Source: Tubulanus polymorphus (taxonomy: Eukaryota > Animalia > Nemertea). Taken from it: 64,000 nucleotides of DNA. Shown piece after piece: positions 12,194-35,866 of this stretch. The DNA lies in the NCBI RefSeq assembly GCF_964204645.1, contig NC_134032.1, positions 7,056,275 through 7,120,274 on the forward strand. The letters are read 5' to 3'. Under the pieces are notes generated by a model. It was not told where the DNA came from, searched no databases, and saw only the letters and a program-made list of their open reading frames with translations. How positions within the stretch are numbered: the stretch's first letter is position 1; the number at the start of each line of letters is the position of its first letter. The translations under genes were made by a program, and so were the position numbers.

Positions 12194-12233
12194 TTAATAA
12201 GAAAAAGATTTAATAGATTAATAGATTCACTAT

Positions 12234-12452: not shown

Positions 12453-12569
12453 TTATTTAAGAAAGAAATTAGAAAATTAATAAACATTTGCTTGTTTTTA
12501 TTTAAATATTTTAAAATCATTTTTAAAATATTAAACTTTTAAATGATTAAATCAAATAACAATTAAATT

Positions 12570-13018: not shown

Positions 13019-13091
13019 TATTAGATATTTAAATCATTTAACTAAATTCAATAATTATTTGACTATTTTATTTATTTTCAATGTAGAATTG

Positions 13092-13772
13092 TTACTCTTT
13101 ACACCAGTTTTTATGTTTAATTGTTTGGTAATGCTTTGATTTATGTGATTTTGAATATTTACCTCCGCAATAACAATGAATTTTTTCATTAGGATTAAAT
13201 CTTTTGAATTCATTTTCTAAATCACATTGAATTGCGATATGTTTAAAAGATTTACTATTTTCTAAATCACACTGAATTGCAATATCTTTAAAAGAATTAT
13301 TGTTTTCTAAATCACATTGAATTTCAATATTTGATGTATTTTCATTATAAATAATTTGTTTATTATCAAAATTACAATAATATAATCGTCGTTTTTCAAT
13401 TCTTAAGTCTATCCTATCATTACCTTTTGAAAGTATTATATCACTTTCTCTTTCATTAAAAGGAAATTTAAGAATATTTATTATGTTTTCATCTAAATTA
13501 CCTTTATAATTTAAAACTGTATTAAATATTTTAGGATTTTTGGCGCCATTATCTAAAGTATCTATTAGTTCAGTAATTAAATATGTTTCATTTAATAATA
13601 TTTGATTAATTACAGTAATATTATTAATTTTATATTGTCTTCCATATACTAAATTTGTTGCTGAAATATAATTTCTAATGTTAAACTGTGAAAATGATTT
13701 ATTGGTTTCATTGATTTCGATTTTGAAGTTGGGTTCTTCTTTCTTCATTTTTATAACAAAATTATTACTCAC
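13092..13772 (-). CDS. ~220-aa protein with three IQCDLEN repeats and C-terminal zinc finger
   Basis: CYCGGKY...H...T.KH terminal motif; true start possibly ATG near 13748. Confidence 0.6.
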   Translation of the reverse strand: MSNNFVIKMKKEEPNFKIEINETNKSFSQFNIRNYISATNLVYGRQYKINNITVINQILLNETYLITELIDTLDNGAKNPKIFNTVLNYKGNLDENIINILKFPFNERESDIILSKGNDRIDLRIEKRRLYYCNFDNKQIIYNENTSNIEIQCDLENNNSFKDIAIQCDLENSKSFKHIAIQCDLENEFKRFNPNEKIHCYCGGKYSKSHKSKHYQTIKHKNWCKE

Positions 13773-14236
13773 ACTTTACTCACACTTTTAATATTGAAAA
13801 TCTCAATTATTTTACTCACACTTTACTCACACTTTTAATATTAAACAATTTTATCATTTTACTCACACTTTACTCACACTTTTAATATTGAAAATCTCAA
13901 TTATTTTACACACACTTTACTCACACTTTTAATATTAAACAATTTTATCATTTTACTCACACTTTACTCACACTTTTAATATTGAAAATCTCAATTATTT
14001 TACTCACACTTTACTCACACTTTTAATATTAAACAATTTTATCATTTTACTCACACTTTACTCACACTTTTAATATTGAAAATCTAAATTATTTTACTCA
14101 CACTTTACTCACACTTTTAATATTAAACAATTTTATCATTTTACACACACTTTACTCACACTTTTAATATTGAAAATCTAAATTATTTTACTCACACTTT
14201 ACTCACACTTTTAATATTGAACAATTTTATCATTTT
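13765..14236. repeat. ~77-bp dimeric tandem repeat (TTTACTCACAC doublets)
   Basis: Alternating 38/39-bp subunits, about 12 subunits. Confidence 0.93.
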
Positions 14237-14296
14237 ATTAGCGCTTTTATATTAAAAAGTGTGTTTATTTTTGGAAAAAAGCAAAAAAAAAATAAT

Positions 14297-14375
14297 TGAA
14301 TATCTCACTACTTTTGTCTATCTATGCGGAGCAATTAAATTGTCCAGATAAGTCATTTCGGATTCTAGATATTCA
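14297..14375 (-). ncRNA. Candidate structured RNA motif, copy in element C
   Basis: Same as 33905-34011 minus the variable hairpin. Confidence 0.5.
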
Positions 14376-14642
14376 TTATTTTTATTAATTTATTTTGTTT
14401 TTATTTAAATATTTGAATTTGAATTTGTTAATCAATTAACATAGTAATTGATTACTAATTTGATTAAAAATTATATCATAATGAAGTTAAAAATACATAA
14501 TTCATTTATCAGTTTTCATTCTTACATTCTTTTCATTTGGAATAATTTATAATTTCAAATTTCACATATTTTTTTAGCACCAACAACATTTACTTAGGTG
14601 TTTTAGCTAAGTATATAAGGCAATTCATTCAACCACTGGAGT

Positions 14643-14931
14643 GCCGCCGGGCTTGGCTTGCAGGGGCATTTCGAAAATGCACCTTTGTCCACCCTCCGTG
14701 GTTCTCCTTCAGTTTCGACTTTCGATCCTCCTTTCGGGGGTAAGGGGTTGATAGGAAATGCATTAGGCGCCTTTAATATAATGTGTTTCCTGTCAACCAT
14801 TGAAGGAGAATTGGTGAGGTGTGGGTCACAGGGGTGTAAGTAGAAATGCTTGGGGATAGGTATCTCGTGGCGCCTCTCAATAACGGGATGCTTATCCCCT
14901 AAAAACTCTGTGAGTCAAGTCGGGTGGTTTT
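14643..14931 (+). ncRNA. Candidate ~285-nt highly structured ncRNA
   Basis: Nested long helices with about 18 G-U pairs on the + strand; two GGCGCC loops; TATATAA ~30 nt upstream; TTTT directly after the closing stem. Confidence 0.7.
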
Positions 14932-15259
14932 GCTAAAACTTACCGTAAAAACATTGAAATATTCCTTTTAATCACGAGAGAATGATGACTAGTCGCGGCC
15001 GAGCTAATTTAAATAAACCTCGTTTTCAGCAACTAATGAAAACGCAGTAATTCAATACCAGCTAACTGGTTTGTGTGTGTTGTATGTACTACGTGCTTAT
15101 TATAACAACAACGTTGTGCAACACCTGTTTGATTGATCAATATTCAAATGAAGCACTCTCTTATAATAACATGTAACAGATGTACTGTATGATTGTAGTT
15201 GTTTATAAAACGACTAAGGTCATTTTGGATTGTAGATATTTATTATTTTTATTTCTTAT

Positions 15260-15586
15260 TTAATCAACAATTTCTAAATCATGATGACCGTCTTCATTTT
15301 TCCCATGATATATTATTTTAAATCCTACTAAATCTTTCAATTCCTCCATACTCAATGAAACCCATTTATCGGGTAAAAACACTTTAAATTCTCGCGATGT
15401 ACTAACATTACAGTAGCTTAAATTAGCTGATACTTTCTCTCCATATTTAGTTTTTATCTTTTCTAATTTCAATATTTTATGTTCAATTTCTTTTGTAACA
15501 TCAACTAACTTTTTTATTTCAAATTGTTTTTTTGCTGGTTTTATTCTGTTATTTATTGTTGCTAAGAATGCTTTTCTATCTCCCAT
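15260..15586 (-). CDS. 108-aa putative SSB-like protein (right TIR of C)
   Basis: Inverted identical copy of 11309..11635. Confidence 0.8.
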   Translation of the reverse strand: MGDRKAFLATINNRIKPAKKQFEIKKLVDVTKEIEHKILKLEKIKTKYGEKVSANLSYCNVSTSREFKVFLPDKWVSLSMEELKDLVGFKIIYHGKNEDGHHDLEIVD

Positions 15587-15702
15587 TTATTAGGGAAAAA
15601 AATTACTTGTGGTGATGAGTAGGAAAAAAAAAATTACTTGTGGTGATGAGTGGTGTCTAGTACTCTCGTACTCTGGCCTGAAAGCCTACTTTCCCAGTTA
15701 CT

Positions 15703-15973: not shown

Positions 15974-17825
15974 ATCAATGAATTCATTTTTTCTGATTAT
16001 CATTTAACTATTATTTTCAGTGGATCGAGTGTGATCTATCGAGTTTGTGTACCAGTTTGTAGCCTATGCATTGATTAGTGAAGAAATATATGTATTTATG
16101 CATTGGTAAGAGAACTTACCATTTTTCAGTTTTTCATTTAATACTTCCATTGTCTACTTCACCTTATTTGGTGAAGTAACTCAGTTTTAGTTATAAAGTA
16201 CCAACCTTCCCAATGTCCCAAATCAATGTGTCAGTAAAGTTTGAAAATACGCCTTCTGTTTCTATGCCTACACACCGAGATACGTGTATTTTCAAAACAT
16301 TTTTATCATGGTTTGTAGGTAATTTAGACATCGGAAACAGAAAATGAAGACTTTTTTCTCCGATTCTGTTTTAGTTAATTAGAGAACTTTTGACATTCCT
16401 TCAATATGGCGTAAAATGCATTAAAAAATTGATGTTTTAGTTCCACTGTCCACTGCTGGTGATTTACGGACATTTTAATTAGGTAAATACGTCAGTTGAT
16501 CAAGTCCGATCAAAAAAGTTGAAATAGACATTAGAATACACGTACAAGTATTTCCTTGGGTGTATGCCTACGTGGCCATCCATAAAGTATGCATGCACAA
16601 CTTCTTATATTTTTAATTCCCTTGACCCAATTATGTGTAACGAAGAGAGAAGTTGATAAGAAATCAGGGAGTGTACCGAAGTGATACGTAAGTGTACCGG
16701 TATTATACTGCTAATAAATCTTGTTATTATTTCATGATAATAAAATACATTTATTTTTGATATGGAACTTAGTTTATTATTTTTGTCTTAGAGTTCAGGG
16801 GCTGAGATCATTTACACCTCTCGTCCTAATCTAAATTAGACTCACATAGCGTGGATGTGAACCGTTGGAGGATTATTTGAGAAAGGCTATCAGTCTTCGT
16901 GCGCGTTGCCGTTGTACCGTATTTAAACACGACCATCTAATGATTCCGGCATTCAAAATTCAAGGCCGGTTTAAAAAAAGGGTAGATCCTAATCGGCTCG
17001 TCAAAAATCGGCCCCAAAAAATCAGGATTCGAACACGCAAACACCGGAGAGTAAGCGTAACGTTTTAATCACAGCACTAGCGATGCGATCTTCCGAAACC
17101 ACTAATTTTGAAACAATATATAGCCTACCCTAAACCCTCTTGATACTAACCCTTCTGATCTTTCTAATATCATCGGTTGAAAAAGCTGCCGTTTTTCCGT
17201 TTTGTAATTGGATTGGATTGTGAATCAGTAAATAGTACAGTCACGAAAGTGACAATATCGGTAACTAGCACAGCTTCTAAATTAGGTAATTTTCTAGGAA
17301 TTAGGCGTTATGCGTTTTCCGATTCGGTGTTTTTCATTAGGCGTTTTTCGAATACCGCTTACGGAGTGTGCGATGGAGTTAGAACCCTTAAGATTATGGA
17401 TTCTATGGAGGGATAGACTTTCCTTGTGTGACAAATACTTAAATGTCTCCATACAGGATCCGTGATCGCGGGTTGACTACCGCTCTGCGAAGGATGGGCG
17501 TTTTAAATCACTACTCTACTATCATACTATCATATTTGATTGAGGTTCTTGAAATCCGATCGGTTGTACTCGATTCTGAATAATGAAAACAAAGAGCAGA
17601 GGCATACGGGATTTTCACGTGGGGTGGGGGCTGGGGGTGTTGTTAGGCGGATTTCGCTGCTCCTCGTCCCAAGAAACCTTAAGGATTAGTCTTATTTTCA
17701 TGCATTCAATCATTATAATTCAAAATGCACCTTGTATGCCTACTTTGAAGGAAAGCGTCGAAAGACTGGGAGTAGTTAGGAAATGTCACTTCAGGACCTC
17801 AATGAGCGAGGGGGGAGGGGGGAGG

Positions 17826-17990
17826 GATGACGTCATACCGGAAGTGACGTCATACCGGAAGTGACGTCATCCAAGATGGCGGCCGGAAGTGACGTAATCC
17901 AAGATGGTGACCGGAAGTGACGTCATCCAAGATGGCGGCCGGAAGTGGCGGTCGAAATTCAAATTTCAAATTTTTGGCGGGAAAATTCAA
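17826..17990 (+). promoter_or_regulatory. Subterminal cluster of ETS, CRE/ATF, YY1 and E2F sites (mirrored at ~31805-31950)
   Basis: Repeated CCGGAAGT, TGACGTCA, CAAGATGGCGGC and one TTTGGCGGGAAA (17973-17984). Confidence 0.7.
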
Positions 17991-18340
17991 AATTTTTCCG
18001 TTAAATCCAAATCAAATTATTGACAACAAATCCAAATCAATTTATTGGCGGTGTTAAATCCAAATCAAATTTATTGGCGGTGTTCAATCCAAATTTATTT
18101 ATTGGTATGATTGAATCCTAGATGGCGCTTACGCATTCCTATGCGTGTTTATGGGAAAAGTTGAATCCTAGATGGCGCTATTACGAGATCATATGTGTAC
18201 GTGAAGGTGAGGGGGAAGTGAAGTTAAATCCTAGATGGCGCTTTTCCCTGAGTACGGGCAAATTCGAGACAAAGAAAACCAAAAATTAAAAAAACAATGT
18301 AAAACAATAAAAAAAAAAACATTTTATTCACCGTTAAAAT

Positions 18341-18916
18341 TTAGTTTAAACACGGTTTAAATCCGAATTCCTTGGCGCACGAGACGTGAATATAAACGTC
18401 GCAGCAGTCTGTCTTTTGTTTAGTTATTTCCAAACATACTAAACACGTGTTGATGCCACAAAATAAAGTTATGCAGTTATAACAAAAATTTTCTTCATAC
18501 CCTTCACACGTTTTAAGTTCGCTTAAACAGGGCCAGCATATAGTTTTATCACAACAATGAAGCAAATCCTCTTGCGTGTGACAACGATAACAGTCTTTTT
18601 TCGCGATATGTTTGATAATCCTAAAATGTGCCATGCAATTCTCGATAGGACATTCGAAATCATGTTGAACGCCTAACCATCGAGCGTTCACTAGCCAGCA
18701 ATCTTCACAAATCGGTTTCCTGCAACACGTCGTTACTCGAAAACTACCGTATGTAATTGTCGTATTACAATATTTGCAAATCGCAAATCCGGTAGACCAG
18801 TCGATATCTTCAAAGTCGACATGATTTATTTCATGTTCCGTGGTAGTTGATTTTTTTTTTTTTTTAGGAAAATGTTTTCTACGGTAAAAAAATCGCCAGA
18901 CATTTTCGTAAGTCAC
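18341..18916 (-). CDS. Cys-rich multi-RING-like protein, left-arm copy (ATG out of frame through A15 tract)
   Basis: Three CxxC...CC...CxxC/HxxC clusters; mirror of 30886..31452. Confidence 0.6.
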   Translation of the reverse strand: MTYENVWRFFYRRKHFPKKKKKSTTTEHEINHVDFEDIDWSTGFAICKYCNTTITYGSFRVTTCCRKPICEDCWLVNARWLGVQHDFECPIENCMAHFRIIKHIAKKDCYRCHTQEDLLHCCDKTICWPCLSELKTCEGYEENFCYNCITLFCGINTCLVCLEITKQKTDCCDVYIHVSCAKEFGFKPCLN

Positions 18917-19304
18917 GTCTCGTTTATGCGAGTGTAAACAAAGCGAGTGCGCAGTTAAATCCTAGATGGCGCTAGTCCGTAATCCTATACAGATGCGTGC
19001 GCATGCGTGCGTTTGTGTGTACGTGTGTAAGCGAGTGACGTCATCCTAGATGATGCCATGATTATATAATCTTATGCGAGCGCGTGTATAGAGAGGGGAG
19101 CGGGATTAAATCCAAGATGGCTTCTTTTGACGGCTATTGTGAAATCATAGACAAGTTTAGGCGAACATATTTCGTAACATGTAAAACCATAAAACGAGTT
19201 CGGGTAAGTCATTTTCTGACAATAAAAACGCGTTGCAAATCCATAATTTAGTCATTCTGCTCAGAGACTTTGAACCGTCAACATCATACAACATCATCGT
19301 AATA

Positions 19305-20132
19305 ATGGATTCGGCCAGCGGACAAAGTATTTTAGAAATATCTAATACACCAGTTAAAGCAAAGTCATCGCTTCAATCTAGAAAAAGAAAACACCCCTCG
19401 CTGAAACTCGACTTTAGTAAGTTTCTACTTATTTCCCGTATTCGAAACCGTCAAATATTAAGACATACGTATACTGATATATAATATTTTATTGTTCTTT
19501 TAGGTTCGATCGTTAATGACAACGCTGTCGCCGGCCCGTCGAAAAGTGCGAACTTGCGTAACACCTGGAACAATGACCCCGAACCCCATTATCTGGGATC
19601 TCTTGTTTACGCGAGTGCGAAAACGTGGCAGGGGGTAAAACGTGTAGATTTACGGTCCTACGAGTGCTGTGAACGAAGAAAACAACTGTATCCCACTAAA
19701 AACGGTATTTCGCTCGATCTCCAAGAGTGGGTGCATATAGATTTTTGTAAATCCGATATCGAACACGAAATTGCGCGCGTTAAAGAAGATATCGAATACG
19801 TGGGTGTAATGACTGTTGGTCGTACGAATTTTATCAAAATATATAGGTCTAGTCACGATCATCGTATTTACGTAGATATCCGAAAATACGATCTATTCGA
19901 TGAACCTCTCGGTGTTTCCCCGACTAGATGCGGTGTAAAACTAACATTGGAACAATGGAAAAAATTGAAAGACATTGATTTTAATGACGATATACCCGAA
20001 CTAGCCAACATGACGCCCTGTTGGTATGATTCGAGTCACTCGAATCAGGAATACAGGTGTCCGTACTGCGCAAAAGACACTTCTGGAGTACGAAAAACAC
20101 CTGAATACGGTGTAATGATCACCCAAGTATAA
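19305..20132 (+). CDS. Spliced tandem-PC4 (Sub1-like) ssDNA-binding protein, 246 aa; exons 19305-19416 and 19504-20132
   Basis: Two PC4 signatures (VDLRSY...PTKNGISLDLQEW; VDIRKY...PTRCGVKLTLEQWKKL); 87-nt GTAAGT...TTTTAG intron keeps frame; RKRK NLS in exon 1. Confidence 0.85.
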
Positions 20133-20229
20133 TTTCACAGATATTAATTAGATAATATTTATATCATAACCGAACAACAAAATATGTAAAATACATCAAT
20201 TTATATAATTTAGTTTGCGTTAAACTCTT

Positions 20230-20322
20230 AGATAGAAATAAGTATCCGAAATGACTAATCCAGGACTTCATTAAGATCCGCTCTAACCAAAGAGGATTAA
20301 CTAAAGTAGTGAGTTTCTATCT
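20230..20322 (+). ncRNA. Candidate structured RNA motif, copy in D left arm
   Basis: Conserved ATCCGAAATGAC and AAAGTAGTGAG with compensatory stems relative to B and C copies. Confidence 0.5.
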
Positions 20323-21009
20323 TTTATGAAATTTATGGTTCTTTCGTGTATAGGTATATGACCTATGTTTATCTACAATATTTATAAAAATATTTATGTT
20401 TTTTAGGACTAAATAAAACATTAATTGAATAAAAGATTTCATTTTTGACTCATTCTGAGTTACGTTAATCTAGCATTTCGTTGCTATCCAGACCCATGAT
20501 ACCATATACCGACAAAGAAGGCAATTAATTGATTTAGATCAATACATGACCACGATTGGGGAAAATAGGTGTGAGCAAAACCAATTACCTAGACTAGTAG
20601 CAGATGGGTCGATAGTATCCAAACACCATTAATTATATGTGGAAGACGAAGGCAATTAAGTGATTTAGATCGGAGACACGTCCGAGATGGGAAATTATGT
20701 GTGAGGTTTCAAACCAATTACACTAGCAATAATTCGAACATTTTTAGTGCTCATAGCGCTGAGGTAATTAAATTGTTTAGAAAAAAACCGAACAGATGGT
20801 CCTATATGCTGGGTGATATTAGACCCGAGTATCAAAAACACCGTTAATTATATGTGATAGAATCCTCAAATACTTTGAGTAAACTGTTAGACTATGAGAA
20901 TTAATCAACTAATTAGTCGTCTGACTTAGACCCATAAATAAGGGGGTAGTTTTAGGACAAATCATTTCCAAGATGTCTGTTATTGGAGCACTAAAATAGT
21001 AGCCGAAAT

Positions 21010-21380
21010 GTTACGTTCGAACTTTATCAAGATATATGGATCTAGTCACGATCACCGTATTACGTAGATATCCGAAAATACGATGAGCTTTTCGACGTAA
21101 ATCCGACTAGATGCGGCATAAAACTAACATTGGAACAATGGAAAAAAATTGAAAGACATTAATTTTACAGAAGATATATCCGAACTGGCTAATATGAGAC
21201 CGTGCTGGTACAATTCGAGTCACTCGAATCAGGAATACAGATGCTCGTACTGCGCAAAAGACACAAGCGGGGTTAGAAAGCACCTGAATACGGTATAATG
21301 ATAACCGAAGTATAATTAAAGTAATTTAAAACCGCTCTGACCAAAAGAGGATTAACTAAAGTAGTGAGTTTCTATCTTTT
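21010..21380 (+). pseudogene. Degenerate duplicate of the 3' half of the PC4 gene and of the RNA motif (mirrored at ~28410-28780)
   Basis: Close match to 19820-20132 with indels, followed by CCGCTCTGACCAAAAGAGGATTAACTAAAGTAGTGAG. Confidence 0.8.
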
Positions 21381-23902
21381 ACGAATTTTTATACGTAGCG
21401 ACTCATTCGTCATCTACCGGATTGTATAAATAAAAGCCATAACCCGTGTATATGTATAATATTTTTGGAAAAAAAAAAATTATGTTTTTTAGATGAACGA
21501 GTAAATAATAAACTTGCAATGTATATAATATTTCATATCTGTCTCATTTTATTCAGATTTACTCTATAATAATCAAGCATTTTGTCGTTGGCCAGACCTC
21601 TTGATACAAAATATCATCTATGAACGTAATTAAGTAATTGAGAAACAAATACCATTGACCCATGGTTAGCATCTACCATCTAAAATATCTGGTCAGTACC
21701 CTCGATGATATGTGACGGAATATGCAGGATGAAAATTACGCAATTAAGTAATTGAGAAACAAAAACCATTGACTCGTTGTTAGCATCTGCCGAATAAGTT
21801 ATTTAGATCAGAGACACAACCGCGATTGGGGAAATTAAGTATGAGCAAACCAACTATAGTATACCCATTTCGGGTTTGTTGGTTGTTTGTTGATTGACTG
21901 ACGCGATTAAGCGTTTTGGAAAACCTAGACTAGTAACAGATGGTTTTCTACGGCGAGTTTATAGAAATATAATTTAGAAAATGACAAAATTCATATACAT
22001 AATAGTTTATTATAGAAGCTTAAAATATTTCACGATAAATTTTTCTTTTACAAAATAATCATTATCATTAGTTTTATTTGACAATAGTTTCGTAATATCG
22101 CGTAAATCGTTACCGTGACATAGGTGCAATAGTACAGATATTGCGTAATAACAGAAATACATCGGATAATACGTTTTGATACATCTTATTATTATATTTC
22201 CAATCTATACAATTTTCATCCAAGTATTTTTCTAACATTTATCACAAGTTCCGGTATGTTGCCCGAACGAATCAAAAATAACCGATTCCGTAATCGTTTA
22301 TATATACAGTTAGCCAATGTTCACCCGGTTCGTCGTAATTGTCAGTGTTTACTATAAAACCCAGCGGGACGCTGGTTTATATCTGGTAGTCGATCGCATG
22401 GAAAAACGCCAAAGAAAGACGCTTTTAGATATTTCTATAGTATAACTATTAACATATCGCAAGCGAATTTATTAACGTTACAATCTCATGGATGAATCGA
22501 AAAAACTATTACTTTACTTTACTTTTGCTTTATTTGACAAACTTTTGGTCTTAATACAAAGACAATTCGAGTGATACAGTATACATAAAAATAAATAAAT
22601 TATATATAGGACGCACAGTAGATAGATACATAATTACACATTGATTTTCATGTGAGCTATCAATTGAAAAGTTTCAAAATTCTTCCAACAAAAATACACA
22701 GTTTACGGAGTTCGGCTACATCTTTAGTTTGCATTAATAATTTTTATCTGAAAATGTTGGGGGTTCGTATAAAATCTCCTGTCTAGGTATAACTCCCTTC
22801 TATCATTTAAATATATACAGTTGAAAAGGTAATGAAATTCGTCCCCAATTCCATTATTACACAATTTACATATTCTTTCAGCACGCTTTACATTATTCCA
22901 TCGGCCAGTTTCTATTGGGAGCTTATGGTTTGCAGGACGGAATTTAGTTAAATTAATTATGAGGTTAACTGAAAGATCAGAGACTAGATGGTTACGGGGC
23001 TTGACTCAATGCCACGCGCTTGGACATGTTCTAATGTTATGTATTGTATACAAAGTGTTGACAAGCTCAATTTATACAGCATTGTAGCCCTCCGGCATTT
23101 TCAAAGTTTTAGATGATTTATCAATAGAAATACTCATATAATGCGCATCCTAGTGCGTTAGTGTTTAAGTGATTTTAGTGTTTTAGTGTCGAATATGTAA
23201 AACCGCAGTTTATTAGATTTCGAGTTGTAAGCATTTCCCGATAACTTACATTAATTATAATGCAGAATTCTTTACTTCCAGTTAACGAGGTTTAACAATT
23301 TTTCAGTTTTTAAAAAAATATGGTTTGGACTTTTTTAATAGGAAAATACTAACAGGTTTGATGAAAAAATAGAAAATGGGATTTCCGGTTTTAGCATTTT
23401 TCAGTATATGGCGTTTTAGTAGGATGATGATTTTAAATTTTCAATAAACGCGGTATAACAATTTTTAGGTTTTTGAAAAATATGGTTCCAAAAGTTTTGT
23501 ATACACAAGAGATTTTAAACAACGAAACTACACACACATGTAACTAAATCACTTTAGTCTTTCCAAATATAGAGAAATAACAGACAAAAATATGTATATG
23601 TATATACTTTATCTTTTTTTCGCATCGCTTTTTCTTTGTTACAAAATTCCCAATTTTTAAAAACTTTTCTTAAATATTTATGTTTTTTAAACATATTTTC
23701 ACAAATTCCCCATACTTTTACATTGCAATATTATATCGAGATTTTCTACATTTCATGCATTTTACAGCTAGACCTTGTAAAGATTTGGTACATTAAATAA
23801 CGCCGCAGGTAAACATTTCAATTGTATTACTTCGTTATGCGTAAATGTTTCGCGTCATCTTCCTACAATATGTGACTGCTATCGGCAGAAATATGGTAAA
23901 TT

Positions 23903-24505
23903 AGGAATTAACATATCTTAAGTTAGCTTCACTTTTCTTAGCTACTCTTACAGAAACCAAGTATGGTTAAAAGTTCAAACGATCTTCAAGCCGCATGAAT
24001 CGATCAACAGTATGCCATTTACTGACCGTGACTCGTGGCTACATTCGTATATATGGTTAAGGTCAAGAAAAAGAAATGAACTAGTTTAAGTTGGAAAGCA
24101 TAAAATGTTCTAGTACAAATATCTGGTTAGTTTGCTTAGTCTAAACCATACTTTCACTAACTTAAGAAATTGATGAACCTCATAAACTGAAAATTAAGTT
24201 TGAGGAATTAACATATCTTAAGTTAGCTTCACTTTTCTTAGCTACTCTTACAGAAACCAAGTATGGTTAAAAGTTCAAACGATCTTCAAGCCGCATGAAT
24301 CGATCAACAGTATGCCATTTACTGACCGTGACTCGTGGCTACATTCGTATATATGGTTAAGGTCAAGAAAAAGAAATGAACTAGTTTAAGTTGGAAAGCA
24401 TAAAATGTTCTAGTACAAATATCTGGTTAGTTTGCTTAGTCTAAACCATACTTTCACTAACTTAAGAAATTGATGAACCTCATAAACTGAAAATTAAGTT
24501 TGAGG
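23903..24505 (+). repeat. Exact 300-bp tandem duplication in the D spacer
   Basis: 23903-24202 equals 24203-24502. Confidence 0.95.
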
Positions 24506-27500
24506 TACTAAAAGATACTAAAACGGTAAAATCACTTAAATACTAACACACTAGGATGCGCATTATAGGAATATTTCTATTGATAAAACGGTGGACTCGC
24601 ACACTTTGGACATACCGGGGACAACAGTGTAGTATAAATTGAGCTTGTCGACACTCTTTGTTCTACCACCCGGATGGTGGTGCTACTGAGATTTTTGCCC
24701 ATATTCGCTATATGCATTTTTATCGTATCCCCTATGCACGACCGTTTCTTTTCTAAATATGGTAAATTAGGAATTTTTATAGATTCTTGTTACCTCTATG
24801 TACCAATGTTTGGTTAGGGGAATTCCATTCTATTCCCGACAATCGCTCGATTTTCGTATTTGTCCCAGCCCATTTTCGCGCTTTTGACAAAAAAAAAAGT
24901 GAAACTACATTACAAGCGTGTGTAATCGAGAAATGTTTAAAACTTACAATCTAAACTTTGGTATAAATTTGGATGCTGTAAGACATTAAAACAATGACCA
25001 TAAAGTTGCGCATAATAGGAATATTTCTACTCATAACTTGTGGGGTCTTTAAACTTTATAAAAACCTATATATTAAGCTTGCTTAAATAGAATTACTTCC
25101 AAAAGTGGTCGAACATGCGAATGTGTTAACGTTGATATGAAAACCAGAAAAACACGTCGGTGGCGTTTTAGATGACAACAAGTAGGGATATATTGTTTTA
25201 CATTAAATAGTTAGCGCGTAGTTGTCAATTATCTATTTAAACTCGTCACTTTGAAGTCTGGTAACTTTTCACCCAATTCAATACGCTAGTGTTACATGTT
25301 ATCAGGCACATATACGTACTCCCTAAGGGGCTAATAGATCGCGCATTATTTCAATTAGAATCACTGTGACGCTGAATTCCAGTATTGAAAAACGTTAACT
25401 TACAAATAACGAAGAATTTTACGTTAATGTTAACGAGCTACAGGACCAAAGTTCCTTCATTTGTGTATACATTAGTACTGCGATACACGTCAACGAGTCA
25501 TACCTTTACTGCTTAGGTGTTTTACTGCTTTAGTATCGAATGGTAACACTTTTATTCGGAATTATGGTTCTCGATATTTCAGTTCAAGCGTTTTATGGTT
25601 TACTAAATTCTTTATCTTCACTAAACGAGGTTCTAACAATTTTCAATTTTGAAGAAATGAGGTTTGAACTTTTTTAATAGGAAAATACTATACGGTTTTG
25701 ACAAAATAACATTAGTTAAAAATACGGTTTGACTATTTTTCGATTTTACATATTCGAGGTTTGAATATTTTTCAATTTGAACTAACAACAACGAAAATCT
25801 TGTAAAAAATAAATATGATTAGCGTTCCCGCGTATAATAATACATGTTGTTTTTTATACAAAAAAAATCAAATGCTCAAGCATGCATCAATAGATCTTCG
25901 GTCATCTCATCTTTTTTCTTTTTTGTGCTTGGAAATGAAATACAATTTCATTGAATGTGAATGTGAAATTTAAAAACTGACTCTTGCGTGATTTTTTCAA
26001 TCTTTATAAATTTACCAAGGTCTAGCTGTAAAATGCATGAAATGTAGAAAATCTCGATATAATATTGCAATGTAAAAGTATGGGGAATTTGTGAAAATAT
26101 GTTTAAAAAACATAAATATTTAAGAAAAGTTTTTAAAAATTGGGAATTTTGTAACAAAGAAAAAGCGATGCGAAAAAAGATAAAGTATATACATATACAT
26201 ATTTTTGTCTGTTATTTCTCTATATTTGGAAAGACTAAAGTGATTTAGTTACATGTGTGTGTAGTTTCGTTGTTTAAAATCTCTTGTGTATACAAAACTT
26301 TGGAACCATATTTTTCAAAAACCTAAAAATTGTTATACCGCGTTTATTGAAAATTTAAAATCATCATCCTACTAAAACGCCATATACTGAAAAATGCTAA
26401 AACCGGAAATCCCATTTTCTATTTTTTCATCAAACCTGTTAGTATTTTCCTATTAAAAAAGTCCAAACCATATTTTTTTAAAACTGAAAAATTGTTAAAC
26501 CTCGTTAACTGGAAATAAAGAATTCTGCATTATAATCAATGTAAGTTATCGGGAAATGCTTACAACTCGAAATCTAATAAACTGCGGTTTTACATATTCG
26601 ACACTAAAACACTAAAATCACTTAAACACTAACGCACTAGGATGCGCATTATAAGAGTATTTCTATTGATAAATCATCTAAAACTTTGAAAATGCCGGAG
26701 GGCTACAATGCTGTATAAATTGAGCTTGTCAACACTTTGTATACAATACTTAACATTAGAACATGTCCAAGCGCGTGGCATTGAGTCAAGCCCCGTAACC
26801 ATCTAGTCTCTGATCTTTCAGTTAACCTCATAATTAATTTAACTAAATTCCGTCCTGCAAACCATAAGCTCCCAATAGAAACTGGCCGATGGAATAATGT
26901 AAAGCGTGCTGAAAGAATATGTAAATTGTGTAATAATGGAATTGGGGACGAATTTCATTACCTTTTCAACTGTATATATTTAAATGATAGAAGGGAGTTA
27001 TACCTAGACAGGAGATTTTATACGAACCCCCAACATTTTCAGATAAAAATTATTAATGCAAACTAAAGATGTAGCCGAACTCCGTAAACTGTGTATTTTT
27101 GTTGGAAGAATTTTGAAACTTTTCAATTGATAGCTCACATGAAAATCAATGTGTAATTATGTATCTATCTACTGTGCGTCCTATATATAATTTATTTATT
27201 TTTATGTATACTGTATCACTCGAATTGTCTTTGTATTAAGACCAAAAGTTTGTCAAATAAAGCAAAAGTAAAGTAAAGTAATAGTTTTTTCGATTCATCC
27301 ATGAGATTGTAACGTTAATAAATTCGCTTGCGATATGTTAATAGTTATACTATAGAAATATCTAAAAGCGTCTTTCTTTGGCGTTTTTCCATGCGATCGA
27401 CTACCAGATATAAACCAGCGTCCCGCTGGGTTTTATAGTAAACACTGACAATTACGACGAACCGGGTGAACATTGGCTAACTGTATATATAAACGATTAC

Positions 27501-29466
27501 GGAATCGGTTATTTTTGATTCGTTCGGGCAACATACCGGAACTTGTGATAAATGTTAGAAAAATACTTGGATGAAAATTGTATAGATTGGAAATATAATA
27601 ATAAGATGTATCAAAACGTATTATCCGATGTATTTCTGTTATTACGCAATATCTGTACTATTGCACCTATGTCACGGTAACGATTTACGCGATATTACGA
27701 AACTATTGTCAAATAAAACTAATGATAATGATTATTTTGTAAAAGAAAAATTTATCGTGAAATATTTTAAGCTTCTATAATAAACTATTATGTATATGAA
27801 TTTTGTCATTTTCTAAATTATATTTCTATAAACTCGCCGTAGAAAACCATCTGTTACTAGTCTAGGTTTTCCAAACAGCTTAATCGCGTCAGTCAATCAA
27901 CAAACAACCAACAAACCCGAAATGGGTATACTATAGTTGGTTTGCTCATACTTAATTTCCCCAATCGCGGTTGTGTCTCTGATCTAAATAACTTATTCGG
28001 CAGATGCTAACAACGGGTCAATGGTTTTTGTTTCTCAATTACTTAATTGCGTAATTTTCATCCTGCATATTCCGTCACATATCATCGAGGGTACTGACCA
28101 GATATTTTAGATGGTAGATGCTAACCATGGGTCAATGGTATTTGTTTCTCAATTACTTAATTACGTTCATAGATGATATATTGTATCAAGGGGTCTGGCC
28201 AACGACAAAATGCTTGATTATTATAGAGTAAATCCGAATAAAATGAGACAGATATGAAATATTATATACATTGCAAGTTTATTATTTACTCGTTCATCTA
28301 AAAAACATAAATTTTTTTTTTCCAAAAATATTATACATATACACGGGTTATGGCTTTTATTTATACAATCCGGTAGATGACGAATGAGTCGCTACGTATA
28401 AAAATTCGTAAAAGATAGAAACTCACTACGTTAGTTAATCCTCTTTTGGTCAGAGCGGTTTTAAATTACTTTAATTATACTTGGGTTATCATTATACCGT
28501 ATTCAGGTGCTTTCTAACCCCGCTTGTGTCTTTTGCGCAGTACGAGCATCTGTATTCCTGATTCGAGTGACTCGAATCGTACCAGCACGGTCTCATATTA
28601 GCCAGTTCGGATATATCTTCTGTAAAATTAATGTCTTTCAATTTTTTTCCATTGTTCCAATGTTAGTTTTACGTCGCATCTAGTCGGATTTACGTCGAAA
28701 AGCTCATCGTATTTTCGGATATCTACGTAATACGGTGATCGTGACTAGATCCATATATCTTGATAAAGTTCGAACGTAACATTTCGGCTACTATTTTAGT
28801 GCTCCAATAACAGACATCTTGGAAATGATTTGTCCTAAAACTACCCCCTTATTTATGGGTCTAAGTCAGACGACTAATTAGTTGATTAATTCTCATAGTC
28901 TAACAGTTTACTCAAAGTATTTGAGGATTCTATCACATATAATTAACGGTGTTTTTGATACTCGGGTCTAATATCACCCAGCATATAGGACCATCTGTTC
29001 GGTTTTTTCTAAACAATTTAATTACCTCAGCGCTATGAGCACTAAAAATGTTCGAATTATTGCTAGTGTAATTGGTTTGAAACCTCACACATAATTTCCC
29101 ATCTCGGACGTGTCTCCGATCTAAATCACTTAATTGCCTTCGTCTTCCACATATAATTAATGGTGTTTGGATACTATCGACCCATCTGCTACTAGTCTAG
29201 GTAATTGGTTTTGCTCACACCTATTTTCCCCAATCGTGGTCATGTATTGATCTAAATCAATTAATTGCCTTCTTTGTCGGTATATGGTATCATGGGTCTG
29301 GATAGCAACGAAATGCTAGATTAACGTAACTCAGAATGAGTCAAAAATGAAATCTTTTATTCAATTAATGTTTTATTTAGTCCTAAAAAACATAAATATT
29401 TTTATAAATATTGTAGATAAACATAGGTCATATACCTATACACGAAAAAACCATAAATTTCATAAA

Positions 29467-29559
29467 AGATAGAAACTCACTACTTTAGTTAATCCTCTTT
29501 GGTTAGAGCGGATCTTAATGAAGTCCTGGATTAGTCATTTCGGATACTTATTTCTATCT
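29467..29559 (-). ncRNA. Candidate structured RNA motif, copy in D right arm
   Basis: Inverted copy of 20230-20322. Confidence 0.5.
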
Positions 29560-29656
29560 AAGAGTTTAACGCAAACTAAATTATATAAATTGATGTATTT
29601 TACATATTTTGTTGTTCGGTTATGATATAAATATTATCTAATTAATATCTGTGAAA

Positions 29657-30484
29657 TTATACTTGGGTGATCATTACACCGTATTCAGGTGTTTTTCGTA
29701 CTCCAGAAGTGTCTTTTGCGCAGTACGGACACCTGTATTCCTGATTCGAGTGACTCGAATCATACCAACAGGGCGTCATGTTGGCTAGTTCGGGTATATC
29801 GTCATTAAAATTAATGTCTTTCAATTTTTTCCATTGTTCCAATGTTAGTTTTACACCGCATCTAGTCGGGGAAACACCGAGAGGTTCATCGAATAGATCG
29901 TATTTTCGGATATCTACGTAAATACGATGATCGTGACTAGACCTATATATTTTGATAAAATTCGTACGACCAACAGTCATTACACCCACGTATTCGATAT
30001 CTTCTTTAACGCGCGCAATTTCGTGTTCGATATCGGATTTACAAAAATCTATATGCACCCACTCTTGGAGATCGAGCGAAATACCGTTTTTAGTGGGATA
30101 CAGTTGTTTTCTTCGTTCACAGCACTCGTAGGACCGTAAATCTACACGTTTTACCCCCTGCCACGTTTTCGCACTCGCGTAAACAAGAGATCCCAGATAA
30201 TGGGGTTCGGGGTCATTGTTCCAGGTGTTACGCAAGTTCGCACTTTTCGACGGGACGGCGACAGCGTTGTCATTAACGATCGAACCTAAAAGAACAATAA
30301 AATATTATATATCAGTATACGTATGTCTTAATATTTGACGGTTTCGAATACGGGAAATAAGTAGAAACTTACTAAAGTCGAGTTTCAGCGAGGGGTGTTT
30401 TCTTTTTCTAGATTGAAGCGATGACTTTGCTTTAACTGGTGTATTAGATATTTCTAAAATACTTTGTCCGCTGGCCGAATCCAT
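29657..30484 (-). CDS. Spliced tandem-PC4 protein, right-arm copy
   Basis: Mirror of 19305-20132 (one D/N difference in the ORF track). Confidence 0.85.
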
Positions 30485-30885
30485 TATTACGATGATGTTG
30501 TATGATGTTGACGGTTCAAAGTCTCTGAGCAGAATGACTAAATTATGGATTTGCAACGCGTTTTTATTGTCAGAAAATGACTTACCCGAACTCGTTTTAT
30601 GGTTTTACATGTTACGAAATATGTTCGCCTAAACTTGTCTATGATTTCACAATAGCCGTCAAAAGAAGCCATCTTGGATTTAATCCCGCTCCCCTCTCTA
30701 TACACGCGCTCGCATAAGATTATATAATCATGGCATCATCTAGGATGACGTCACTCGCTTACACACGTACACACAAACGCACGCATGCGCACGCATCTGT
30801 ATAGGATTACGGACTAGCGCCATCTAGGATTTAACTGCGCACTCGCTTTGTTTACACTCGCATAAACGAGACGTGACTTACGAAA

Positions 30886-31452
30886 ATGTCTGGCGATTTT
30901 TTTACCGTGGAAAACATTTTCCTAAAAAAAAAAAAAAAAAAATCAACTACCACGGAACATGAAATAAATCATGTCGACTTTGAAGATATCGACTGGTCTA
31001 CCGGATTTGCGATTTGCAAATATTGTAATACGACAATTACATACGGTAGTTTTCGAGTAACGACGTGTTGCAGGAAACCGATTTGTGAAGATTGCTGGCT
31101 AGTGAACGCTCGATGGTTAGGCGTTCAACATGATTTCGAATGTCCTATCGAGAATTGCATGGCACATTTTAGGATTATCAAACATATCGCGAAAAAAGAC
31201 TGTTATCGTTGTCACGCGCAAGAGGATTTGCTTCATTGTTGTGATAAAACTATATGCTGGCCCTGTTTAAGCGAACTTAAAACGTGTGAAGGGTATGAAG
31301 AAAATTTTTGTTATAACTGCATAACTTTATTTTGTGGCATCAACACGTGTTTAGTATGTTTGGAAATAACTAAACAAAAGACAGACTGCTGCGACGTTTA
31401 TATTCACGTCTCGTGCGCCAAGGAATTCGGATTTAAACCGTGTTTAAACTAA
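30886..31452 (+). CDS. 188-aa Cys-rich multi-RING-like protein (intact copy)
   Basis: ATG in frame through A19 tract; three zinc-binding clusters. Confidence 0.7.
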   Translation: MSGDFFTVENIFLKKKKKKSTTTEHEINHVDFEDIDWSTGFAICKYCNTTITYGSFRVTTCCRKPICEDCWLVNARWLGVQHDFECPIENCMAHFRIIKHIAKKDCYRCHAQEDLLHCCDKTICWPCLSELKTCEGYEENFCYNCITLFCGINTCLVCLEITKQKTDCCDVYIHVSCAKEFGFKPCLN

Positions 31453-33207
31453 ATTTTAACGGTGAATAAAATGTTTTTTTTAATTGTTTTACATTGTTTT
31501 TTTAATTTTTGGTTTTCTTTGTCTCGAATTTGCCCGTACTCAGGGAAAAGCGCCATCTAGGATTTAACTTCACTTCCCCCTCACCTTCACGTACACATAT
31601 GATCTCGTAATAGCGCCATCTAGGATTCAACTTTTCCCATAAACACGCATAGGAATGCGTAAGCGCCATCTAGGATTCAATCATACCAATAAATAAATTT
31701 GGATTGAACACCGCCAATAAATTTGATTTGGATTTAACACCGCCAATAAATTGATTTGGATTTGTTGTCAATAATTTGATTTGGATTTAACGGAAAAATT
31801 TTGAATTTTCCCGCCAAAAATTTGAAATTTGAATTTCAACCGCCACTTCCGGCCGCCATCTTGGATGACGTCACTTCCGGTCACCATCTTGGATTACGTC
31901 ACTTCCGGCCGCCATCTTGGATGACGTCACTTCCGGTATGACGTCATCCCTCCTCCCTCCCCCCTCCTCACTCCTCCCCCTCCCTCATTGAGGTCCTGAA
32001 GTGACATTTCCTAACTACTACTGGGTATAGATAATACGAGTGAAAGATTTTAAAAGTTATTCATTTGTCGATTTACGTAAAAACTCAACTTATAGTCTCT
32101 TTCGATTTTGGAACGTTCTTCTTCACATGTCTTGTTATTGTTACACCTTGGATCAGTAATCATAAGGTTACACTGCACATGCACTATATCCGATACAGTT
32201 GATCAGCAAGCGTATCAACCGAATTGATTTACTAGGGAAAAGAGACATTGTCCGAACATTTATCGTTTTAACGAATTGTTCGTATCATCGTGTTCACAGT
32301 ATCAGACTACTTGTATACCGATACATTCCACTATGTTATAAGATTTAACAAAATCGTATTTAATTCAATGACAATCATGTTCCAATGACGATCACTGTTG
32401 TTGTATCCTACAAAGATATCTTTAACCGTTCAAATTATAAACAGCTCCTGCGCGTATATATTCGTCTTGAAAGTACATATTTATATGATCAATCTTATCT
32501 TCAATCTTATTTGTATAAAGAAATGAAATGTTGTGTAAACCTCATTCATCAATTTGACTTGTAAGATATAATTGAAAAAAGAAAGATTATGTATATGAAT
32601 TTTGTACAATGATCGGTGGCTATTGGCGCTCGCTTGGTCTATACGTATGGAAAAACATGCCCTCAAAAGCTGGGACATGGTCAAATTCAGTGCCAGATCC
32701 ACCCCATGAACCAGCATTACAAAATGAAGAGAGACTATGACGATGGCAGTACTTCAAATCCAGGACCCGGTACTGTTTCAGGATCTTCACATCCCATAAT
32801 CACAGTTGAGTTGTGACCAACATACTCTGATTTTCAGAAGGGAGAGTGATCAAGGGAGGGAGGGGCGGGAGGGGAGAGGGAAAGAGAACAATAATTGTAA
32901 GTTGAATTATACGGAAGTATCAATGTTTATACCCTCTCATCAACGCAAGTTGTAATCAGGCCCATAGCCAGGGCCCTTCAAGGGGGTGTGCGATATAAAC
33001 TACAAGTGGACCTAACCACGCCGGTAAAGCCAAGCGGCTTATTGTTAAAATTTATCATTGTTATCATTACTGTTACTATTATTATCATCCATTGTTATAA
33101 TAATCAGCTTTTGTGCATTTGATATTTATTATATAACTTTTGATCACCGTCAATTGTCACTTTTACTTAAAAATAATTGTAATTGCACCTTAGCATGTAT
33201 TCATTTA

Positions 33208-33551
33208 AGTAATTAGAAAAGTGGGGTTTCAGATCAGAGGTCGAGAGGTCGAGACACCACTCATCACAGCTAGGCTCTAGTGAGAACGGACGATTGCTCT
33301 GTGACACACATATACAGTGAGTGCGCGTAACAGCAGCTGCGCGTGGATAGATCGATACAGTGAGTCTCTACTGAGAACGGTTATTAACGCGTGTGCTATT
33401 ATTGTAGTAGTACAGTGATTGCGTGTCAACTGTACCCGGATAAATAGATGCTGTGAGGCTTGGGTGAGAACGGTTAATAGCGTGTTTGTTATATACAAGG
33501 GGAAGTAATCCCCACTCATCACCACAAGTAATTTGTTTTCCTTATAAATGG
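33208..33551 (+). repeat. Left TIR of B
   Basis: Inverted match to 49869-50212 with about 5 mismatches; ends at the ATGG of the terminal gene. Confidence 0.95.
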
Positions 33552-33874
33552 GAGATAGAAAAGCATTCTTAGCAACAATAAATAACAGAATAAAACCAGC
33601 AAAAAAACAATTTGAAATAAAAAAGTTAGTTGATGTTACAAAAGAAATTGAACATAAAATATTGAAATTAGAAAAGATAAAAACTAAATATGGAGAGAAA
33701 GTATCAGCTAATTTAAGCTACTGTAATGTTAGTACATCACGAGAATTTAAAGTGTTTTTACCTGATAAATGGGTTACATTGAGTACGGAGGAATTGAAAG
33801 ATTTAGTAGGATTTAAAATAATATATCATGGGAAAAATGAAGACGGTCATCATGATTTAGAAATTGTTGATTAA
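33548..33874 (+). CDS. 108-aa putative SSB-like protein
   Basis: Homologs in A and C; function inferred. Confidence 0.75.
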   Translation: MGDRKAFLATINNRIKPAKKQFEIKKLVDVTKEIEHKILKLEKIKTKYGEKVSANLSYCNVSTSREFKVFLPDKWVTLSTEELKDLVGFKIIYHGKNEDGHHDLEIVD

Positions 33875-33904
33875 ATTTTTTAAAAAATAAATTAATAAAA
33901 ATAA

Positions 33905-34011
33905 TGAATATCTAGAATCCGAAATGACTTATCTGGACAATTTAATTGCTCCGCATAGATGGTGCCATAAACAGCACCACACAGTGATAGACAAAAGTAG
34001 TGAGATATTCA
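33905..34011 (+). ncRNA. Candidate structured RNA motif, copy in element B
   Basis: TGAATATCT/AGATATTCA closing stem, conserved internal loop and covarying inner stems. Confidence 0.5.
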
Positions 34012-34052
34012 ATTAATTAAAAAAAATTATTTTTTTGCTTTTTTCTAAAATA

Positions 34053-34421
34053 TTAATCCATTTTTTTTATTATCAATTTTGGAATTTCAGAAGTACTTTC
34101 ATTTTTGATAGCAGTTGGTTCAGAATTACTAATATCATGAATTTTATTTGATTTCTTATACCAACTACACCCAATCAAAATGAATACAATTACAAATCCA
34201 ACTGTAAAATATAAATATTTATCAAATATTCTACTATTAGAAGGAGTAGAAATAACAATATTTTCACCATTTTTATTAACATTTTTATTACTTATTTTTT
34301 CTTTTACAGCTTTTTTATATTCTTGTGATTTAATTCCTAATTGCCGAGACCATTCAATTTGTTTCTGAGTTCTCGGTTTTTTCTTCACAGTTAATTCCTT
34401 CACTTCTTTCACCTCGCTCAT
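34053..34421 (-). CDS. 122-aa basic single-TM protein
   Basis: KKPRTQKQIEW N-terminus; TM YLYFTVGFVIVFILIGCSWY. Confidence 0.7.
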   Translation of the reverse strand: MSEVKEVKELTVKKKPRTQKQIEWSRQLGIKSQEYKKAVKEKISNKNVNKNGENIVISTPSNSRIFDKYLYFTVGFVIVFILIGCSWYKKSNKIHDISNSEPTAIKNESTSEIPKLIIKKMD

Positions 34422-34953
34422 TTATTATAGAAATATTTTTACTTTCAATATTTGAAAATGTTATAACTCCAGTTGATAATAATGTCATAAATCCACCTAA
34501 TTGAAATGATAAATATCCAATCCATTTATTTAATTCAGTCATAACTAAATAATCATTTTTTAAATCGGAATATAATCTATTTTCATCTTCAATTGGTAGT
34601 ATATAATTACATAATTTACTATAACCTTTTACTACATTTTCTGATATCGCGTCATTAATTTTAGCTGTTCTCGCGGCTTCATAAATCTTAAATAATCTAA
34701 TAATTTCATCTGATTTCATTGTATCTAATTCATTATAAGTTAAATTTTTACCGACAAAATTTTTACATTTTCCAGATGCTATTAATATTTCTAATTGATG
34801 TTTACAATAAAGATAATATTCATAATTATTATTTGTTGTAACATTATTTAAAGCACCATCATCTGGAGTTTGTTTCTGTTATTCCTAAATCATCTAAAGT
34901 TTTTTCAATTGGAACATCACCATTTTTAGATTTTATTTTCTTTTCACCTCCCA
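34354..34953 (-). pseudogene. Conserved hypothetical protein, frameshifted near the N-terminus
   Basis: TAAATG start near 34953; frame upstream of the 121-aa ORF reads KHQLEILIASGKCKNFVGKNLTY. Confidence 0.6.
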
Positions 34954-34982
34954 TTTATATAACAAACAAATTAGTTGTGTTG

Positions 34983-35235
34983 TTGCAACTAGAATTCAAC
35001 TAGAATGTAACTAGAATTCAATTAGATTAACAAGCTAGTTGAAATATTGTTATTTTTGTTTATTTCTTGTTAAATCTAGTTGATTTTTGTTCCAACTACC
35101 AATAACTAGAATTCAACTAGAATGTAAATAGAATTAAACTAGATTAACAAGCTAGTTAAAATATTGTTAAATCTATTTGATTTTTGTTACAACTACCAAT
35201 AACTAGAATTCAACTAGAATGTAACTAAATATGTA
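34983..35235. repeat. Intergenic CAACTAGAAT direct/inverted repeat block, related to 11636-11760 in C
   Basis: Three AACTAGAATTCAACTAGAATGTAA units with interspersed CTAGTTG inverted copies. Confidence 0.75.
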
Positions 35236-35258
35236 ATTGATTAACAAACTAATTAAAT

Positions 35259-35866
35259 TTAAATAAATTCATATTTAAATGGGTGTTGTAATCTAAATAG
35301 TAATTTTGATCTTTTAATATTTTTCAACTTATCCATATATTCATTATGTAAATCATGTGGAATAATATCATTTTCCTCAAGTGCATTTTTCATCGATTTT
35401 CTATCTTTATTGTAGAATAAAACTAGAAATCTAATGTTTTCTCTAAAGTCTTTAACAATTGAATTATATTTTTGATTTAAAACCCAAGTTGTTATCCCAA
35501 AATGTCTCCCAGAGAAAGCTAAATAGCATAACTCACTTTCTCTAACTTTTGAATCATGTAGATTAGCACAATCATCTATAATGAATAATGTATTTGATCC
35601 TTTATAAATATCAATTGCTATTTTTATACAATTATCTAAATTTTCTTTTACTGTTTAGGATCTAATATAATAAATTTATTATTCCTAGTAATATTTTTAT
35701 CATAAGTTTGATTAAATTCATATGTTGGACAAAATAATACTATATTATCAAAATAGTTTTCATAAACAGTTTCTAATAAATGTAATATAAAATAAGTTTT
35801 TCCACAATTTGTTACACCAGAAATTAACATATTATGAGGCTCAAATATGAATAATTCCTTATTCAT
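35259..35866 (-). pseudogene. A32/FtsK-like packaging ATPase, frameshift near 35652
   Basis: Walker A GVTNCGKT; shifted frame gives Walker B LFIIDDC and SGRH...LNQ motif. Confidence 0.9.

Follow-up and report, generated by a model that had tools for sequence, protein, structure and literature searches.

How an element that ends like a Polinton could come to consist almost entirely of one sequence and its reverse complement is the question raised by a locus of the nemertean Tubulanus polymorphus. The element measures 14,249 bp and lies at positions 17771-32019 of a 64,000-nucleotide stretch of contig NC_134032.1 (assembly GCF_964204645.1, positions 7,056,275 to 7,120,274; hereafter the window, to whose first letter all positions refer). 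We are highly confident that it is a Polinton derivative. Beyond this, we consider it moderately probable that the element is a helper-dependent, palindromic satellite of a PC4-carrying Polinton lineage, with its left end copied onto its right by a template switch, while we give slightly better than an even chance to a copy-back step as the event that produced the palindrome.

Both ends of the element read inward as AGTAGTTAGG, of the (AGT)2//(ACT)2 type, and the hexamer ACTGGG stands directly outside the left and the right end as a perfect 6-bp target-site duplication (TSD), a match whose chance probability is 1.2e-4 from the composition of the flanks. Exact copies of the terminal 12-mer are confined to 17771 and 32019. 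Two 12-mer matches with two mismatches in the spacer were considered as cryptic inner termini and rejected, as coding DNA elsewhere in the window produces such matches at the same level by chance. Aligning the window with itself by BLAST returned a single long inverted match, 17771-23781 against 32019-26011, with 99.17% identity, 34 mismatches and 10 gap openings. The two arms, of 6,011 and 6,009 bp, therefore account for 84.4% of the element and enclose a spacer of 2,229 bp. An earlier, sequence-only reading of this DNA had described AGTAGT termini, a perfect 6-bp TSD, near-identical 6.0-kb arms and a 2.2-kb spacer, each of which is borne out here. It had also noted that Polinton terminal inverted repeats (TIRs) are normally hundreds of bp long, and published values agree that 6 kb is unusual: 46-1,447 bp in vertebrate Mavericks, which have (AGT)2//(ACT)2 ends and a 6-bp TSD and span 12.7-24.6 kb (Barreat and Katzourakis 2021, PMC8097293), 100-1,500 bp in Polintons (Jeong et al. 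2023, PMC10748475) and 744 bp in Polintons of C. elegans (10.1101/2024.01.15.575659).

The arms differ at 44 places in total, 15 of them within the first 500 bp, of which 13 fall in the tract 17807-17844. Beyond this tract, 23 of the 5,925 aligned bases are substituted (0.39%). The ratio of observed to expected CpG is 1.2-1.6 over 17771-26010; host-like DNA nearby has a ratio of 0.9, and the AT-rich Polintons of the window have 0.4-0.5.

The sequence-only reading had found no polymerase, integrase or capsid gene in the element, and this withstood a search by frames, Pfam, tblastn and tblastx, none of which revealed a core gene. The longest stop-free frames encode 215 and 206 aa. Of the 21 frames of at least 60 aa in the left arm and spacer, 20 were compared with Pfam and returned no Polinton core family; the remaining frame is mostly flank, and one of the 14 right-arm mirror frames was scanned. 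No protein-primed B-family DNA polymerase (pPolB) and no retroviral-type integrase were found in the element by these means: 123 related pPolB proteins gave a single tblastn match at chance level (E 0.009), and the neighbouring Polintons gave zero matches by tblastx. No capsid, ATPase or protease gene was seen among the frames, a result obtained with parent-lineage capsid queries lacking and compatible with heavily decayed remnants.

What the arms do contain is new relative to the sequence-only reading. Each has an intact, spliced tandem-PC4 gene, a cysteine-rich open reading frame (ORF), a decayed second PC4 copy belonging to a tandem duplication of ~1.2 kb, and the 3' end of a sequence like a long interspersed nuclear element (LINE). 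The 87-bp GT-AG intron of the PC4 gene is present in both arms, and the product has two PF02229 matches in Pfam (E 5.9e-14). A structure model built from an 8-row alignment (mean predicted local distance difference test, pLDDT, 67) has PC4 and PUR single-stranded DNA (ssDNA)-binding folds as its top PDB matches (E 1.4e-3 and weaker), and its best fold match in a viral library is labelled in that database as MOSUB of Branchiostoma lancelet adintovirus (E 2e-6). From these family and fold matches the arm protein is predicted to bind ssDNA.

The cysteine-rich frame exceeds the frame length reached in all 2,000 of 2,000 shuffles. Its product matches no Pfam family, has no homologue among the one candidate retrieved and finds no convincing match in the PDB (best E 0.11), and its structure model, with a pLDDT of 41, is unusable; viral RING proteins predominate among its Atlas neighbours, at 0.86-0.90, which offers a weak lead. 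The LINE-like remnant, which we take to resemble the ORF2/LINE family, comprises an ORF2-like C-terminus, a 3' untranslated region with AATAAA and a short-repeat tail, at which contig depth is very high. Pfam matches it to zf-RVT at only E 0.15.

The origin of the arm is indicated by a second locus, L001, to which a 48% PC4 relative led; it was the single locus obtained from 58 pattern matches in metagenome contigs. Over its positions 1-4868, L001 begins with motif repeats, continues with a spliced tandem-PC4 gene and a 104-aa ORF, and then encodes a PF03175 pPolB. The initial repeats resemble the sub-terminal repeats of the element (E 4e-11), whose 17-bp and 28-bp units are presumably YY1-, ETS- and CRE-like motifs, and the PC4 exon, preceded by a GT-AG intron, is 44% identical over 210 aa to that of the element. 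The shared repeats and the presence of the PC4 gene beside a pPolB thus tie the arm to one end of a Polinton lineage different from that of the neighbouring elements. The outer 2.4 kb of the arm has the layout of an autonomous-type Polinton end, with repeats followed by the spliced tandem-PC4 gene, and the arm runs 3.6 kb beyond the part common with L001, of which only one end is known. Of a non-autonomous Polinton the element therefore has both an arm homologous to one end of an element with a pPolB gene and, as described below, multiple copies in the host; of an autonomous one it has the end motif and the 6-bp TSD, and neither a TIR of ~50-1,500 bp nor the core genes.

Related pPolB genes are present in T. 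polymorphus itself. The top four of 1,237 matches to the L001 pPolB are proteins of this species, and a quick tree of 17 chosen rows joins L001 and four host pPolBs in one clade with 100% support in the Shimodaira-Hasegawa-like approximate likelihood ratio test (SH-aLRT), far from the two pPolBs of the AT-rich Polintons in the window; the L001 and neighbouring Polinton pPolBs are 23% identical over their best local stretch. The host pPolB XP_074651572.1 (1,244 aa) and the PC4 member XP_074651573.1 have consecutive accessions and a same-sized contig, which suggests that this gene pair is adjacent in the host too. When viral contigs were scanned for exact copies of the terminus and of the sub-terminal repeat, 0 matches resulted, and a scan with the PC4 alignment gave 31 pattern matches and 0 relatives.

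These relationships bear on the identity of a helper, which the sequence-only reading had sought outside the neighbouring Polinton family. For replication this proposal holds, given the L001-type pPolB clade in the host. For integration it is less secure, since the palindromic element and the neighbouring Polinton at 33208-50212 have 11 of their first 13 terminal bases in common, so that the integrase of the latter is a possible source. The further suggestion that the near-unit length of the element reflects packaging found no support: a 4.5-kb non-autonomous neighbour has its own 6-bp duplication, and near-unit length is therefore not needed for insertion.

The sequence-only reading had called for a search for other copies, and both proteins and read depth now supply them. 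An exon-2 query retrieved four proteins from 91 candidates, three of which are T. polymorphus RefSeq clusters. The left-arm PC4 product is identical to P0005, from T. polymorphus RefSeq, which is encoded at two loci on two contigs, while P0001, at a third locus, is one residue off the left-arm product and an exact match to neither arm. More distant PC4 relatives comprise one at 87% and four at 65-68% identity. Sequencing runs numbered ten, of which four, from one study, contain the stretch; X5 is a run of raw reads from another study and another individual, and none of the runs listed with the stretch is an RNA run. Mean X5 depth is 9.8 in four left-flank bins, 85.6 in the outer arm, 32.7 in the inner arm, 31.7 in the left spacer and 12.8 in the mid spacer. 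The outer arm is thus ~9-fold deeper than the left flank, which, together with the identical proteins at two loci, indicates a multi-copy family. Depth over the LINE remnant is 53-79-fold, and the family was therefore amplified after the LINE was acquired. The sequence is multi-copy and rearranged in this other individual.

Rearrangement is apparent from read joints, of which 15 were listed in each of two depth analyses, from 27 and 23. Two X5 joints connect the spacer to the right arm: 24422/28732, seen in 6 reads with 3 starts, and 24729/26296, seen in 5 reads with 3 starts. A third joint, 26019/26066, changes strand with a loop of ~47 bp and appears in 5 X5 reads and one X2 contig of depth 2.7. 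If otherwise like the window copy, molecules with these three joints would measure 9.9, 12.7 and ~12.0 kb. The spacer/right-arm junction of the window copy is itself bridged by a 653-bp X1 contig (25827-26478) with 2 differences. Joint 23187/24200 was considered as an alternative palindrome centre and rejected, as it falls at the last base of the stretch analysed and at the diverged arm copy in the spacer. Joint 24775/24212 is explained by the end of the stretch and by a 21-bp direct repeat (23888-23908 and 24755-24775), which flanks the spacer segment containing both the 300-bp duplication and the inverted paralogue of the arm. At joint 20164/21505 (mirror 28285/29625), 19 X5 reads and one X3 contig skip the second PC4 copy, and a one-PC4-copy subfamily therefore exists; two more joints, 31974/29702 and 31705/30024, jump back inside the arm.

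Taken together, these observations enabled us to propose a model, which shares its copy-back step with the copy-back (defective-interfering or satellite) genome inferred in the sequence-only reading. A gutted ancestor would have gained both the partial duplication of its PC4 region and the LINE 3' end before mirroring, because both features are found in both arms. It is plausible that a template switch then took place in the interior during protein-primed strand displacement, and that copying back along the nascent or sister strand generated two arms with a unique loop between them. In this model, the displaced strand would fold into a 6-kb stem and so rebuild a duplex origin, the retained PC4 protein is predicted to bind the displaced single strand, and polymerase and integrase would be supplied in trans, with the polymerase coming from the related pPolB lineage of the host. 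The single 6-bp duplication indicates one insertion of the whole unit. That a multi-copy family without core genes carries a host LINE remnant likewise points to complementation in trans.

Several observations weigh against this model. No read or contig runs across both arms, the left arm/spacer junction is backed by continuous X5 depth with no bridging record among those listed, and the empty site and terminal flanks are absent from the loose ends listed (304 and 190 more lie beyond these). Plain deletion explains joints 24422/28732 and 24729/26296 equally well, which leaves the turn-back joint as the only other clearly palindromic type of molecule, and this could be a library fold-back. The inner-arm depth of X5 equals that of the left spacer where twice as much would be expected, and with the lower mid-spacer depth this implies that most copies differ in layout. 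The single-copy baseline of X5 is also uncertain, since other flank bins stand at 4.9 and 20.7 and genome sizes from flow cytometry imply 5.4-6.2; the copy ratio of the arm accordingly lies between ~4 and 17, at ~9 by the main baseline. The sub-terminal tract is not alike in the two arms, and 12 of the 23 arm substitutions fall within 800 bp, 21116-21914 and its mirror (p ~0.0008), a cluster that covers the decayed PC4 duplicate and suggests patchy conversion or a mosaic arm. Clustered differences, together with at least one site that is polymorphic within the family, are not what a single clean copy-back followed by uniform decay would leave. Finally, the PC4 protein beside the host pPolB is only ~65% identical to that of the element, so that its locus represents a sister family and not necessarily the parent.

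Among the alternatives, an origin on the chromosome survives best, though we regard it as unlikely. Here a non-autonomous copy with short TIRs would have inserted and TIR-primed repair or conversion would have extended the repeat inward, resulting in a non-replicating form. Such a process likewise yields one TSD and near-identical arms, and its patchy conversion fits the clustered arm differences; a mid-spacer depth only ~1.3 times that of the left flank also speaks for it. It is harder to reconcile with the other individual, where a turn-back joint occurs and two further positions link the spacer to the right arm. The X1 contig over the right junction is likewise a difficulty: at a depth of 214, compared with 94 in a flank contig, that junction would seem to be present more than once, although contig depth does not equal copy number.

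A clearly less probable explanation is that the long arms were inherited from an autonomous parent that already had multi-kilobase, PC4-bearing TIRs, and that the element lost only its central core. L001 covers one end of its element and so leaves room for long TIRs in that lineage. However, the L001 pPolB has its 3' end 0.7 kb after PC4, at a point where the element has 3.6 kb of duplicate, LINE and filler in both arms, and the four 65%-identical host PC4 proteins each occur once, on four differently sized contigs.

We consider it very improbable that the element arose from two separate copies of the family that came to lie head to head, by insertion or recombination, with a captured spacer between them. 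In a young, multi-copy family that encodes the same protein at two loci, near-identical copies could meet, and three other Polinton-type elements lie in the window; but the outer ends are flanked by identical 6-mers and no inner ends are present. Where arm sites listed from the X5 reads were compared (66 and 336 more were not listed, and four sites mirror each other), the window has one letter common to both arms at 21 of 25 right-arm and 17 of 19 left-arm sites, and among the former are 8 at which at least 85% of reads differ. As X5 comes from another individual, with flanks 3-4% different, such shared letters argue only weakly for copying from arm to arm and against a meeting of two copies.

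Least probable by our estimate, to the point of being barely credible, is an assembly or fold-back artefact, for although the missing spanning read, the 7 of 10 arm indels in or beside short homopolymer runs and the perfect 300-bp spacer duplication would suit one, the flanks are distinct yet have the 6-bp duplication in common, 23 substitutions and a repeat tract distinguish the arms, a contig from an unrelated run bridges the right junction, and at four arm differences ~94-100% of reads have the other arm's letter, with a fifth splitting about evenly.

Known systems share individual features with the palindromic element. Foldback-type cut-and-paste transposons (FB, Galileo) generate a 7-9-bp TSD and have a P- or Mutator-like element (MULE)-type transposase partner; the palindromic element does not fit this type, having a 6-bp TSD, the Polinton end motif and a Polinton-linked gene. 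With Mavericks/Polintons the element has in common the end motif, the perfect 6-bp TSD and a length within 12.7-24.6 kb. It differs in its 6-kb arms, ~4 times the longest published TIR found, and in missing all eight core genes, and its retained PC4 gene is spliced, whereas Maverick core ORFs are described as lacking introns. Adintoviruses (Starrett et al. 2021, PMC8502044) share a PC4/MoSub1-type accessory protein, and the L001 pPolB groups with the PolB of Rhodactis adintovirus and has a high PF03175 score, like the Alpha class; unlike them, the element is without hexon, penton, protease, ATPase, PolB and integrase, and has the accessory gene twice, once per arm. Copy-back and snap-back defective genomes (defined in PMC13506859), among them the snapback genomes of adeno-associated virus (AAV; PMC10924063), resemble it in having one end repeated as a reverse complement around a unique loop, in the loss of replication genes and in the existence of several junction variants. 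In contrast, those genomes are transient products of RNA viruses or AAV, while the element is integrated with a TSD, multi-copy and furnished with a host LINE remnant. Teratorn (PMC6431247) has long inverted repeats but unrelated ends and genes, being an autonomous herpesvirus-piggyBac fusion of 41-182 kb. No Polinton derivative with multi-kilobase arms was found in the full-text literature, although subscription journals, Repbase, Dfam and supplements could contain one, and the excerpted text of the preprint by Widen et al. holds nothing on long-armed Mavericks.

The replication and spread of Polintons have so far been inferred, not observed. According to one study, they spread mainly via particles and reinfection, while the amplification of defective copies is unexplained (PMC8097293), and the panhandle model of protein-primed replicons is popular while direct evidence for it is lacking (PMC11886824). 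Giant arms are the leftover to be expected of panhandle or copy-back replication. It is conceivable, if tentative and to our minds rather less than probable, that the element represents a recurrent class of snap-back Polinton satellites in which one helper end is mirrored, an ssDNA-binding gene is all that each arm retains, and whole palindromes multiply. If so, integrated, capsid-less Polinton copies could be re-mobilised in trans, since the family amplified after the LINE was picked up, and this element would be the first genomic record of a panhandle intermediate. Having no core gene, members of such a class would be missed by screens that require polymerase and integrase. More speculatively, a 6-kb inverted repeat with inward-facing genes could give rise to long hairpin RNA directed against the helper family.

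Table 1. Features of the palindromic element and its borders (window positions)
Feature	Position	Strand	Mirror in right arm
Left target-site duplication, 6 bp	17765..17770
Left arm, begins with (AGT)2 motif	17771..23781	+
G-rich tract of repeat units, variable between arms and among family copies	17807..17844
Sub-terminal repeats, 17 bp and 28 bp, resembling repeats near the L001 start	17828..17947	+	~31844-31960
AT-rich tandem repeats, 29 bp	18000..18105	+	31686-31791
Cys-rich frame of 206 aa between stops, with three CxxC...CC...C/HxxC units	18341..18961	-	30877-31452 (+)
Tandem-PC4 gene, exon 1	19305..19416	+	30373-30484 (-)
Tandem-PC4 gene, exon 2, with C-terminal Cys/His cluster	19504..20132	+	29657-30285 (-)
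Decayed second copy of PC4 3' half, 82% DNA identity	20999..21317	+	28473-28791
5'-truncated LINE-like remnant	22507..22985	-	26805-27283
Spacer, no recognisable gene	23782..26010
Perfect 300-bp tandem duplication within spacer	23903..24505	+
Inverted copy of arm 23054-23190, diverged (81%)	24514..24655	-
Scrap of high-copy repeat, 35 bp; 127 and 123 reads leave at its edges	24783..24817
Direct copy of arm 23266-23371, diverged (83%)	25606..25708	+
Right arm, ends in (ACT)2	26011..32019	-
Right target-site duplication, 6 bp	32020..32025

Tandem-PC4 proteins with the conserved C-terminal Cys/His cluster (P0133-P0280) form a wide, mostly unnamed family with 399 representatives at E 0.001, and one cluster contains Mytilus members labelled as CARD-domain proteins.

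The palindromic element has Polinton-type company. At 33208-50212, 1.2 kb away, lies an AT-rich Polinton of 17,005 bp, bounded by TIRs of 348 bp and a 6-bp duplication, which encodes a chromodomain integrase and a pPolB frame with an intein/LAGLIDADG segment, the end of the polymerase being in a separate frame. The non-autonomous element at 11194-15702, of 4,509 bp, shares AGT-type ends, a 6-bp TSD of its own and the lack of core genes with the palindromic element, and differs from it in its 444-bp TIRs, its size and its relation to the AT-rich neighbour family, its ends being related to those of the 33208-50212 element. A further piece of AT-rich Polinton, from 1 to ~8750, is 74-88% identical to parts of 33208-50212 and has a pPolB without an intein. 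With four Polinton-type elements in 50 kb, the region may be a hot spot for insertion. Two sequences that match each other and resemble an (AGT)2 end also occur inside two of the neighbours, at 14312 (-) and 33996 (+), and may be nested or older termini. Further along the window, at 59406-61597, a PIF1-type helicase extends over two frames.

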